Virus record (IMG/VR): IMGVR_UViG_3300012020_000004
Span: 18,921 to 82,920 of that record
Length of the DNA: 64,000 nucleotides
Strand: one strand, 5' to 3'
DNA from: a virus
Lineage: Duplodnaviria > Caudoviricetes
Under the pieces are notes generated by a model. That model had not been told where the DNA came from. It ran no database searches and worked only from the letters and a program-made list of their open reading frames with translations. A program made the translations under genes and the position numbers. Shown here in pieces: positions 30,179 to 41,622 of this stretch (position 1 is its first letter; each line of letters opens with the position of its first letter).

Positions 30179-30862
30179 TTACTTGAAACCGAGGTTACCG
30201 AGGCTCGCCCTGAGGTCAGGGTCGAGGTTGTCCAACTTGAGAAGCCAGGTTACGTAGCTCGGGGGAAGATCCTTGAGCGGCGTCCCCTTGTGCTTGCCGA
30301 ACGTCATCTTGGTCATCTGGATCGGCGTGTTTGCCGCCTCGAACAGATCCCAGAGGGTGTAACCGAAGTCCTCCGTCATCTTTCCGAGAAAAGACATGAG
30401 AATGATCATGTCCCCGTCCGCAGAGTGGAAGCGATCTTTGTCGACGTCCAACTCTAGGGCATATACTAGCGTAGCCAACTTATGGTTGTCAACATCCGGG
30501 TATAGCTTACGCGCAAGTCGCAGCGTGCACATCTGCGGCGTGGCGTCCGGGAGGTAGGGCCCGAGGTAGCGAAAATCGAAGGGGGAGTTGTGGGCTGTGA
30601 AGATGGCATCGACGCTGCCCAGCTTGTTGCCCAGGACATCGTAGAAATACTCGTCGGCGGTTGGGGCGCTCTCAACGTCTTTCATCGTGATCCCGTGAAC
30701 GGCGCTGGCGCCTGCTGGGATAGGGCGCTCTGGGTTGATCAGGCTGTGGCCCTCGTCAAGGATCTTGAAGTCCTCGTTCATCAGGAGCCATGCCACTTCA
30801 ACCATTCGGTCAGAAGGGCTGACCCCGGTCGTCTCACAATCCGCCAAAAAGTACTGTGCCAT
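30179..30862 (-). CDS. DEDDh 3'-5' exonuclease (ExoX / Pol III epsilon-like)
   Basis: DCETTG, AHNSPFD, HSADGD; C-terminal MTFGKHKG..L..LP.SY. Confidence 0.9.
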   Translation of the reverse strand: MAQYFLADCETTGVSPSDRMVEVAWLLMNEDFKILDEGHSLINPERPIPAGASAVHGITMKDVESAPTADEYFYDVLGNKLGSVDAIFTAHNSPFDFRYLGPYLPDATPQMCTLRLARKLYPDVDNHKLATLVYALELDVDKDRFHSADGDMIILMSFLGKMTEDFGYTLWDLFEAANTPIQMTKMTFGKHKGTPLKDLPPSYVTWLLKLDNLDPDLRASLGNLGFK

Positions 30863-30889
30863 TTTGTAGTTCTTCTTGTTGTGTCAACT

Positions 30890-30965
30890 TGGCCTGCCCG
30901 GTAGGGATCGAACCTACGACCATCAGCTTAGAAGGCTGATGCTCTTCCAACTGAGCTACGGACAG
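30890..30965 (-). tRNA. tRNA-Arg(UCU)
   Basis: Cloverleaf CTGTCCG.../CGGGCAG-G-CCA, anticodon loop CT-TCT-AA, TTCGA T-loop. Confidence 0.95.
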
Positions 30966-30970
30966 AAAAT

Positions 30971-31046
30971 TGGTGCTGGCAGCAGGACTCGAACCCGCGA
31001 CCTTCGACTTACAAAGACGCTGCTCTACCATCTGAGCTATGCCAGC
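30971..31046 (-). tRNA. tRNA-Thr(UGU)
   Basis: GCTGGCA/TGCCAGC-A-CCA, loop TT-TGT-AA, TTCGA T-loop; two anticodon stem mismatches. Confidence 0.9.
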
Positions 31047-31440
31047 AGCGCCCGTCTTTCCGGGCCGTCACCACAACCCGCCGCGGCGAGCTTGTCATCC
31101 CATGTCCTTGGCAGGTGGTTCGCCAGTGGTATCCCGCATGGTAGGGGCTGCTTCAACCCGACGCAGGCTTTGCAGATCTTCCAGAGGGCTTTCGCCTTGT
31201 GCGTCTCTGAGTACTTGTATGTGGACACCTAACGATTTGTTCCGTCACGCGCTTAACTGTGACTCGCTGGTACCCACACGACTGACGGCTGACCCAACTT
31301 GCTGAAGGTTGGTGGTATTTCAGGTCCCTAACGTGTTTCGGGATTGCAGCCCCTACTTCCATCACTGGGTACGTTGCCTTCCCGTCTTACCGGGGGCGTA
31401 TCAGCTTCAGCCGTCATGCGTGTGGGCCCTCGAGGCTATT
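31047..31440 (-). ncRNA. Candidate large structured non-coding RNA
   Basis: Long-range stems (31273-31292 with 31407-31426; 31141-31151 with 31346-31356), twin CCCG-GWAAGA-CGGG hairpins, GNRA hairpin; no convincing ORF; abuts tRNA-Thr. Confidence 0.6.
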
Positions 31441-31479
31441 TGGTACACGCCGCCTCGAGGCTCTGGGCGTGGGGGAGGC

Positions 31480-32001
31480 CTAATAGTGCAGTTGTCGTGG
31501 GGGGTCTGGGTGAAACTTAGACGCCTCGCCAAACATGGCAACATGCGCTACCTTGAAAGCCCCGTGGGCTTCGTCAGGAGTGTCGAACGTTCCGATGTAC
31601 GTTCTTCTCCTGTTTACGTGTATGGCCGCAACGTAACGGCCAAAAGGCGTCTTCGTGACCCCCGGGAGGATTGGGTTACGCCTCCCATCTCCACCTGCGA
31701 GATTCTCCGTGCGGTTAACCAGACGTAGGTTCTCGATACGGCTGTTGCTTCTGTCCCCGTCTTTGTGGTCGATGTCCAAGTCCTTCGGGGGCAGCTCCCC
31801 GTGGTGGTAGAGCCAAACCAGGTGGTGAATCAGATACCTCCTACCGAAGATAGAGATTGACCTGTAACCCTCACCACCTTTACTCCCAGCCGACTGGCCT
31901 GCTTTAGCCCTGTGACTTGTAGGGGCCACCCAGATGAGGTGTCCTGACTCCTGGTCATATCTCATGTGGCTCCGCAGAGCCTCTTGGGTTAAAGCAGGCA
32001 C
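31480..32001 (-). CDS. HNH endonuclease with C-terminal AP2-like domain
   Basis: HHLVW, IDHKDGDRSNSRIENL; GV...GRYVAAI...YIGTFDT.DEA. Confidence 0.9.
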   Translation of the reverse strand: MPALTQEALRSHMRYDQESGHLIWVAPTSHRAKAGQSAGSKGGEGYRSISIFGRRYLIHHLVWLYHHGELPPKDLDIDHKDGDRSNSRIENLRLVNRTENLAGGDGRRNPILPGVTKTPFGRYVAAIHVNRRRTYIGTFDTPDEAHGAFKVAHVAMFGEASKFHPDPPRQLHY

Positions 32002-32010
32002 AGATCAACC

Positions 32011-32784
32011 TCACTTGGCCACGTGGAAGCTAAAGTTACTGTACTTGTTGCTGCCCTTAGAGCGGGCAACCGCCTCGACCTCCACTACATCCGAGACGCT
32101 CTTCACGACACCCTTGGCCAGCAGCACGCCCTGGGTCTGGCAGAACGCGGCGAACTGGCCGGCAGAGGTCTGGGACAGCTGCACGACCACCATCTTGCGC
32201 TCCTCCTCCGGGATGTCGCCCTTCTTCTCCGTCCAGGTCAGCATCCCGAACAGGTCGATGTACATCGACTTGTTGGCCTTGTCGTAGGCGTGGGTTTCCT
32301 TCAGGTCCTGGAGGTACTCCTCCACCGTGACATCCTTACCGTAGACGGTCTGGTTGTCATAGGTGTTGGCCAGGTACTGCTTGGACTCCTCATAGCCCGG
32401 GTCCTTCGACTGCAGGCCGGGGCTGAGAATCCAGCGGTAGTTCCACGAGATGATCTCGACACGGCAACGGGTGCCGAGGCTATCGTTGCCGATGTAGCAG
32501 GCGCCCTGCTCAGCCTTGACACGCTCGACGGCCATGGACAGGCCGACGACGGTCTCGATGTCGAAAGCGTCTTGCTTGTCGGCGTAGATCGGGGGGAACT
32601 TCGCCGGGGCGCGGGCGGCGCCAACAGCAGTCGTCTGGGCGACGACGGGGACGGAGGCCTGAGCGACCTCGGGGGCGGGAACACCAACAGCGTGGGCTTC
32701 GGCGGTCATGGTGTCAACTTCCTCATCAGTTTCGAACGGGGGCAGGGTCTGGGTCTGGGTCTGGATTGCGTCTTTGAGTGCCAT
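32011..32784 (-). CDS. Hypothetical protein, possibly ssDNA-binding/replication accessory
   Basis: 257 aa, strongly biased codons, own promoter, lies next to primase; function inferred only. Confidence 0.6.
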   Translation of the reverse strand: MALKDAIQTQTQTLPPFETDEEVDTMTAEAHAVGVPAPEVAQASVPVVAQTTAVGAARAPAKFPPIYADKQDAFDIETVVGLSMAVERVKAEQGACYIGNDSLGTRCRVEIISWNYRWILSPGLQSKDPGYEESKQYLANTYDNQTVYGKDVTVEEYLQDLKETHAYDKANKSMYIDLFGMLTWTEKKGDIPEEERKMVVVQLSQTSAGQFAAFCQTQGVLLAKGVVKSVSDVVEVEAVARSKGSNKYSNFSFHVAK

Positions 32785-41546: not shown

Positions 41547-41622
41547 TGGTGGGCCCTGCGGGACTTGAACCCGCAACCTTCGAATTATGAGTTCGCTGCT
41601 TGACCGATTAAGCTAAAGGCCC
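41547..41622 (-). tRNA. tRNA with CAU anticodon, most like tRNA-Ile2 (lysidine, reads AUA)
   Basis: GGGCCTT/AGGGCCC-A-CCA acceptor, CT-CAT-AA loop, TTCAA T-loop; G1-C72 pair and no triple G-C anticodon stem, so not an initiator. Confidence 0.85.

Follow-up and report, generated by a model that had tools for sequence, protein, structure and literature searches.

The window, that is, the whole 64,000-nucleotide stretch of DNA analysed here, comes from an IMG/VR virus record that is 82,920 bp long and has direct terminal repeats. The locus under study sits in the replication module, beside primase/helicase-like genes, and comprises the following features.

32011-32784, minus strand: gene for a 257-aa protein, upstream of the HNH_3 gene
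31480-32001, minus strand: HNH_3 endonuclease gene, upstream neighbour of the RNA and outside it
31047-31479, minus strand: spacer of 433 nt between the HNH_3 gene and tRNA-Thr
30971-31046, minus strand: tRNA-Thr(UGU), directly downstream of the spacer
30890-30965, minus strand: tRNA-Arg(UCU), downstream of tRNA-Thr
30179-30862, minus strand: RNase_T-type exonuclease gene, downstream of the tRNA pair

The best PolA match of this phage clade among cultured phages reaches only ~28% identity, indicating that the clade has no laboratory relative and no cultured member. An earlier note, made from the window alone, had proposed that the spacer holds a candidate novel RNA. The search of Rfam that it suggested revealed no clear match to a known family: none in Rfam 15 reached E = 0.1 on the spacer and, with gathering as well as permissive thresholds, the window and 13 related loci gave tRNAs and a few chance-level sub-gathering matches. 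BLAST of the spacer against 50,697 phage records returned just tRNAs and chance 20-mers. Three pattern scans of viral contigs found nothing, a pattern scan of genome contigs gave two chance matches, both within coding genes, and a literature search with two conserved 11-mers retrieved primers only. The RNA is single-copy in its own genome, and a comparable spacer was not found at the tRNA-Met locus (41547-41622).

The 257-aa neighbour has 29 metagenome relatives. Contigs reached via this protein, together with ten contigs carrying an invariant 21-mer, provided the related loci (L numbers below), and the spacer recurs in ~20 metagenomic relatives in the same syntenic slot. For example, L036 matches the entire spacer, the tRNAs and the exonuclease gene at 94%. 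In L040, which lacks 31048-31286, the part 31287-31473 is better kept (85.6% identity) than the flanks, where the 257-aa gene reaches 70% and the stretch spanning the tRNAs and the exonuclease gene 78.6%. The 257-aa protein of L062 is only 54% identical to that of the window.

The HNH gene is an incidental neighbour, given that a TerB gene and a 52-58-aa ORF occupy its position in relatives and that their homology to the window starts exactly at the HNH stop codon. Thus, of the location first described, between an HNH gene and the tRNA pair, the proximity to tRNAs holds, whereas the link to HNH does not. The HNH/TerB replacement (window 31480-32001; L036:5846-6456; L059:4758-5889) ends exactly at the 5′ edge of the RNA, and both genes are present in L059 (L059:4758-5889). 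The 257-aa protein (32011-32784) has no match in Pfam, PHROG or deposited phages; some of its atlas look-alike clusters carry Pam3_Gp34, DUF5895 or Gp3-like domains, which are leads only. Accessory genes near the slot vary among relatives: L153:3915-4268 is a gene with an Acb2/Tad1-hairpin domain, L040:6581-7438 encodes an HNH-MazG fusion product and L036:8169-8669 is an extra HNH gene. L149 has a 135-aa ORF ahead of the exonuclease gene and, at L149:1112-1182, ~10 nt downstream of stem A (see below), a weak tRNA-like sequence (50.6 bits with the Rfam tRNA model). Ahead of the exonuclease start codon, the clade conserves an unstructured A/C-rich leader in which no Shine-Dalgarno sequence is obvious (window 30863-30889, L151:1995-2030, L062:3660-3703).

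On the comparative evidence described below, the spacer (31047-31479) encodes a real, folded, non-coding minus-strand RNA that belongs to no Rfam family. As read from the aligned relatives, this RNA is a chain of modules, namely a pseudoknot, a long stem (stem A) with a ~110-nt apical domain, a 3′ module and an optional block of ~175 nt. The RNA is therefore discrete, structured and absent from Rfam, as first suggested, but it does not form a single 390-nt unit; its conserved core covers ~250 nt (31220-31479). The modules and their parts are listed below.

31428-31471, minus strand: H-type pseudoknot, directly after the HNH stop codon and preceded by a C-rich leader
31466-31471 with 31446-31451, minus strand: pseudoknot stem S1, formed with the first six bases of the H1 loop
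31452-31460 with 31428-31436, minus strand: pseudoknot stem S2, which is hairpin H1
31437-31445, minus strand: A-rich loop 3 of the pseudoknot
31273-31426, minus strand: long-stem domain, in which stem A (31407-31426 with 31273-31292) bears the apical domain V1
31370-31400, minus strand: P3, an irregular hairpin with a conserved hexaloop (31385-31390)
31340-31353, minus strand: P4a, a local 4-bp hairpin using part of the 5′ arm of stem B
31294-31312, minus strand: P6′, a 5-bp hairpin with a 9-nt loop
31401-31405 with 31301-31305, minus strand: candidate pseudoknot P2, formed with five bases of the P6′ loop
31226-31272, minus strand: 3′ module, in which P7 encloses hairpin H3
31264-31272 with 31226-31235, minus strand: P7, with A31230 bulged
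31244-31263, minus strand: hairpin H3, inside P7
31220-31225, minus strand: third copy of the stem-base hexamer, able to pair with 31273-31278 (P8) or with 31071-31075 (closing block 2)
31047-31219, minus strand: optional block 2 (~175 nt), ending 3 nt before tRNA-Thr and containing a GNRA hairpin (31187-31196), the 3′ arm of stem B (31141-31151), a terminal hairpin (31050-31065) and most of a 63-aa ORF
31037-31228: 63-aa ORF, extending past block 2 at both ends and 10 nt into tRNA-Thr

Stem S2 of the pseudoknot is 99% paired over 12 sequences, with two G.U variants, and one S1 pair, A-U in 4 and G-C in 8 of these sequences, is never broken. Compared by eye and partly by script, this topology is also seen in L052 and L060, built there from unrelated stem sequences, and more loosely in L062/L154; the fold of L151/L065 is ambiguous between a pseudoknot and a nested hairpin. 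The element again lies right after a stop codon in relatives, often with a similar A-rich third loop, and it begins at most ~10 nt from the stop codon in every lineage.

Stem A, in which 18 of 20 positions pair in the window (31273-31292 with 31407-31426), is as real as the earlier note had claimed and is conserved: it is present in all complete relatives, with differing arm sequences, and 10 of its 18 pairs are changed on both sides in alignment A10. By our own estimate, the chance expectation of such an 18-of-20 match is ~1e-4. L040 has 12 pairs by a strict script and ~18 by hand, and the other relatives have 17-23. A 2x2 internal loop interrupts the stem in V1 and V3 (another apical domain, see below) and is missing in L062, L154 and L049.

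In the 3′ module, P7 shows 96.8% pairing across 7 sequences; two-sided changes affect 2 of its pairs, and it is rich in G.U pairs, which would be A.C mismatches on the opposite strand. An integron attC-like reading of this module was rejected, as the helix register does not fit (by eye). P8 (31220-31225 with 31273-31278) is 100% paired in 7 sequences, via one-sided transitions only. Two copies each of the hexamer that forms the base of stem A and of its complement are present (31220-31225, 31273-31278, 31421-31426 and 31071-31075), which makes alternative pairings possible (stem A base, P8 or closure of block 2), and L062 alters the matching position in all its copies of the hexamer. The pairing of P8 in place of the stem A base weakly hints at a conformational switch. 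Block 2 is missing in L040, L048/L044, L049, L059 and L062, and it is nearly invariant where present; its terminal hairpin shows one compensatory double change, in L047.

The V1 apical domain was examined in the same way. A MAFFT alignment of close relatives, folded with RNAalifold, yielded stem A, P3, P4a and P6′, with 7 compensated pairs. Three of the four top pairs of P3 are changed on both sides across the window, L048 and L062, as are two pairs of P6′. A G-C pair of P4a becomes A-U in L040, and two others vary by a one-sided G.U change. P2 is invariant, which is compatible with the data and gives no covariation signal either way. We built a covariance model of the V1 domain (R2) from three sequences, and it detects L062 at E = 7.7e-11. 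In the alignment of four sequences, 96.9% of cells are paired and 17 of 42 pairs are changed on both sides; none of 500 shuffles scored as high and slid controls gave at most 4 such pairs. It should be noted that these statistics rest on four distinct sequences and that alignment A10 was fitted to the model, which favours structure. The covariation check suggested at the outset thus revealed compensated pairs: in the aligned sequences, paired changes preserve stem A, the 3′ module and four inner helices. The antisense of P6′ (31294-31312, plus strand) with its T-rich tail scores as terminator-like on the plus strand; such sites are not commoner than in shuffles.

The support for the RNA is comparative, not thermodynamic. 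Folding energy is unremarkable (sense strand, z = -1.3; opposite strand, z = -2.3). When the region was dinucleotide-shuffled 200 times, 1.5% of the shuffles contained a perfect inverted repeat of at least 11 nt. On the sense strand, the supported helices contain ~40 G.U cells compared with 4 A.C mismatches (our own tally). This excess of G.U over A.C on the minus-strand RNA indicates that the folded molecule is the sense-strand RNA and, judged from the alignments, selection keeps the pairings on that strand.

The fold first proposed was a pseudoknot between stem A and a second stem, B. Rechecked on the sequence, all the stems, hairpins and distances then listed are present at their coordinates, including the complementarity of stem B (31141-31151 with 31346-31356, 11/11 bp), its 6-bp extension (31123-31128 with 31363-31368), a 6-mer pair that crosses it (31131-31136 with 31339-31344), the GNRA hairpin at 31187-31196 and the twin purine-rich hexaloop hairpins (31381-31394 and 31050-31065). 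No other convincing hairpin of this type occurs in the 64-kb window, the scan giving 3, including 1 likely chance match, with 1.1 expected by chance. Pseudoknots are indeed part of the fold, but the A/B pseudoknot was not borne out: stem B has its 3′ arm in the optional block, which several lineages lack, and its 5′ arm lies partly in the covarying hairpin P4a. Moreover, the two arms occur apart in relatives. L040 and L048 have the 5′ arm and no partner, block 2 being missing, while L038 and L042/L046 have block 2 with another apical domain and without the 5′ arm; the 6-bp extension is broken in L043, with no compensating change. Stem B was therefore rejected as a conserved pairing. In the window, ~23 complementary bases in three segments (31123-31151 with 31339-31368) join the V1 domain and block 2, one segment crossing the other two, and this pairing is not conserved in relatives. 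The complementarity is notable and may be a lineage-specific long-range contact, which nothing in the comparison supports.

Comparison of the closest relatives revealed that phages with flanks that are ~88-97% identical to those of the window differ in what the common stem base carries, their interiors being unrelated. The apical domains were assigned as follows.

V1: the window and others
V2: L038
V3: L042/L046, and also the more distant L059 and L149
V4: L049
V5: L154, which is close to L062 and shares its H1 and stem base

A further long hairpin occupies the slot in L153. Overall, at least six mutually unrelated apical domains (V1 to V6) occur on the common scaffold. They are confined to the slot, none being found elsewhere, and the V interiors have no Rfam match. 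Copies of a mobile element were considered as their origin and rejected, as no copies lie outside the slot and the RNA is single-copy in its genome. The V3 interior, like that of V1, contains compensated pairs. In L052, the pseudoknot is followed by just a 12-bp hairpin with a 15-nt loop and then by tRNA-Thr, and L062 and L154 have the RNA while the tRNA is missing. These alignments show a scaffold that stays constant and an apical domain that is exchanged among close relatives.

In phages whose 257-aa protein is ~40-44% identical to that of the window, and in two phages found via the exonuclease gene only, a different RNA (D-type) lies between the 257-aa and exonuclease genes (L053:4617-4782, L054:4597-4775, L055:3400-3559, L056:4647-4806, L073:333-474 and L075:2370-2491). 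In each case the exonuclease gene follows just downstream; L053-L056 have the 257-aa gene on the upstream side, and in L073 and L075, the two found via the exonuclease, an ORF ends just upstream. The D-type fold consists of a 6-bp helix, a 3-bp hairpin and a 5-bp pseudoknot of the hairpin loop with the 3′ tail. In this double-pseudoknot motif, all cells pair and 3 of the 5 pseudoknot pairs are changed on both sides. D-type RNAs have no Rfam match. Features common to V1 and D-type RNAs are the slot, a short hairpin motif and a helix of 5-6 bp that pairs with a loop further downstream. The window is not detected by R1, our covariance model of the D-type RNA, even with filters off, and we therefore treat D-type, on the strength of this model, as an analogue rather than a demonstrated homologue. 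In still more distant phages, an ordinary intrinsic terminator fills the slot.

Membership in known classes was also considered. As the earlier note had stated, signatures of tmRNA, RNase P RNA and group I or II introns are lacking; for these, and likewise for known self-cleaving ribozymes and riboswitches, Rfam models and ARAGORN gave no match. Degenerate tRNAs within the spacer were rejected, as no tRNA model matches there. 6S RNA has no Rfam match at E up to 10 in 30700-31700, and the fold is a closing stem with a multi-branched, pseudoknotted apex, not a long rod with a large central bubble. Neither the window nor the related loci match the Rfam models of GOLLD and ROOL; a phage genome and a position beside tRNA genes are shared with these RNAs as context, not as membership. 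For D-type RNAs, the P1, P3, P1.1-like pairing and following hairpin of HDV-like ribozymes can be drawn by eye; HDV-like ribozymes, including theta, were rejected, since L053 offers no P2 partner (by eye) and Rfam gives no match.

We propose, with a probability of roughly 60%, that the spacer encodes a minus-strand structured RNA that is co-transcribed with the replication genes and the tRNA pair and whose 3′ end is freed by RNase P. A promoter-like site is predicted upstream of the 257-aa gene, and neither a sigma-70-like promoter nor an intrinsic terminator is predicted in the spacer interior on the minus strand, where H1 is followed by G/C-rich sequence and no U run; the RNA is thus probably part of an operon transcript. 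From this polycistronic transcript it would probably be cut out. The final hairpin ends at 31050, 3 nt before tRNA-Thr (which starts at 31046, minus strand), so that RNase P could make the 3′ end, as suggested previously; cleavage at the 5′ end of tRNA-Thr would leave the RNA ending at 31047. L062 and L154, which have the RNA without the tRNA, indicate that RNase P is not the general route to this end. The pseudoknot and the long stem may protect the new ends or serve as an RNase III-type site. With 17-20 bp in the relatives, the stem offers the roughly two turns of intercistronic double-stranded RNA that a T7-type RNase III site has, cleavage being putative. As to function, the released RNA or its apical domain most likely acts in trans as an accessory phage RNA; we rank this first, at somewhat less than even odds.

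The second-ranked explanation, distinctly more tentative, is that the RNA is only a 3′-end stabiliser or processing insulator, which would protect the upstream message after tRNA excision and carry the apical domains as passengers. The pseudoknot lies within ~10 nt of the stop codon in every lineage, L052 makes do with the pseudoknot and its 12-bp hairpin ahead of tRNA-Thr, and plain intrinsic terminators fill the slot in more distant phages. Moreover, the apical domains are interchangeable or, in L052, nearly missing, which suggests that these phages can do without the V1 fold as such and agrees with a role that is structural only. However, the V1 interior is kept by compensatory changes down to L062, with its 54% identical 257-aa protein, and the V3 interior has compensated pairs as well. 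Such changes would not hold passenger sequence, which disfavours this explanation.

A role as cis-regulatory leader of the exonuclease operon, either a riboswitch or an operator bound by a protein, as in T4 gene 32, is ranked third and appears unlikely. In T4, repression by gp32 of its own mRNA operates through a 5′ pseudoknot and the unstructured RNA behind it (PMC3014915, PMC535899), a precedent that recalls several of the loci: the RNA directly precedes the exonuclease gene in L062 and in D-type phages, and in L151/L065 a paired-stem element with the same A-rich loop motif is followed by a ~35-nt unstructured C/A-rich leader and the exonuclease start. A gene 32-type arrangement thus fits in L151/L065, where the fold is ambiguous between pseudoknot and nested hairpin, and the window has a similar unstructured leader at 30863-30889. 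In the window, however, ~250 nt of further structured RNA and two tRNAs lie between the pseudoknot and the exonuclease gene, so that a gene 32-type operator was rejected there, and tRNA processing would separate the core from that gene. In addition, no terminator or element sequestering a ribosome-binding site was found, and no known riboswitch class matches.

It is very unlikely that the conserved element acts as DNA, for instance as a replication origin or as a hairpin recognised in single-stranded DNA. Its location inside the replication module, beside primase/helicase-like genes, and its long inverted repeats, typical of origins, would suit such a role. Against it, the G.U pairs are strongly biased to one strand, the operon sense strand, and pseudoknots and a conserved hexaloop are RNA-type features; given that a G.T pair is tolerated in DNA hairpins too, the bias only weakens this explanation. 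A small protein gene or decayed gene remnant in the 63-aa ORF is highly improbable: although its GC3 of ~0.75 is gene-like, the ORF matches no family in Pfam or PHROG, overlaps tRNA-Thr by 10 nt, lies mostly in a block missing from five lineages, has 9 non-synonymous or nonsense changes compared with 2 synonymous ones in its frame (own count) and a premature stop codon in L036, while the double change of L047 keeps the hairpin and alters two residues of the ORF product. Conservation therefore does not follow this frame, which the earlier note had named as a check, and coding by the 63-aa or by a 70-aa ORF was rejected, as neither shows a conserved frame with synonymous-biased change.

The preferred reading, a structured RNA released from the operon transcript, has several known parallels. 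Small, structured stable RNAs (species 1 and 2, rnaC/rnaD) lie beside the tRNA genes in the T4 tRNA cluster; their transcript includes the tRNAs, tRNA-processing enzymes set them free, and to our knowledge they have no assigned function. The spacer RNA resembles them as a structured RNA beside phage tRNA genes, but it is larger, pseudoknotted and equipped with an exchangeable apical domain, and outside the tRNAs it is similar to none of the 50,697 phage records. T7 has RNase III processing hairpins between its early genes. Likewise, stem A lies between cistrons and has ~20 bp, interrupted in V1 and V3 by a 2x2 internal loop, but it bears a conserved ~110-nt apical domain, and L062, L154 and L049 lack the loop. 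GOLLD and ROOL reach several hundred nucleotides. The spacer RNA shares with them its nature as a phage non-coding RNA near tRNA genes, whereas its core of ~250 nt has no Rfam match and no motifs in common with them were seen. GOLLD and ROOL have been described as ornate non-coding RNAs, often found in phages or prophages near tRNA genes (bioRxiv 10.1101/2024.12.08.627333). With the T4 gene 32 operator, whose pseudoknot has no Rfam model (PMC10690425), the window shares an H-type pseudoknot in a phage replication operon, and L151/L065 share the succession of paired-stem element, unstructured RNA and start codon. In the window, by contrast, the pseudoknot lies after, not before, the candidate binding-protein gene and far from the next start codon. 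The spacer RNA belongs to none of these four groups.

A survey of IMG/VR reported 8,495 unnamed candidate structured RNAs, averaging 67 nt (PMC10690425). These covariation-supported phage intergenic motifs outside Rfam are of the same nature as the spacer RNA, which is far longer than their average and may be among them. The spacer RNA represents a new family of an already known kind of RNA and is unusual in its modular habit.

A further, rather speculative interpretation, which we consider improbable, is that the slot constitutes an RNA accessory locus, in which a fixed scaffold (pseudoknot, 18-20-bp stem and 3′ module) displays the interchangeable domains V1 to V6. This would liken the slot to the hot spots at which phages exchange genes for anti-defence proteins and, if true, V1 and D-type would each define a new class of functional RNA (decoys, ligand sensors or ribozymes, for instance) with a part in phage-host conflict.

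Phage non-coding RNAs beside tRNA genes are poorly understood. The locus provides a defined scaffold together with covariance models for the D-type RNA (R1) and the V1 domain (R2), as well as a natural experiment, in which one scaffold carries at least six different apical domains in phages that are otherwise near-identical. Should these domains act in trans, the slot would correspond, at the RNA level, to the variable loci of accessory genes in phages; otherwise, it would clearly exemplify how a phage insulates its messenger RNA from tRNA processing.
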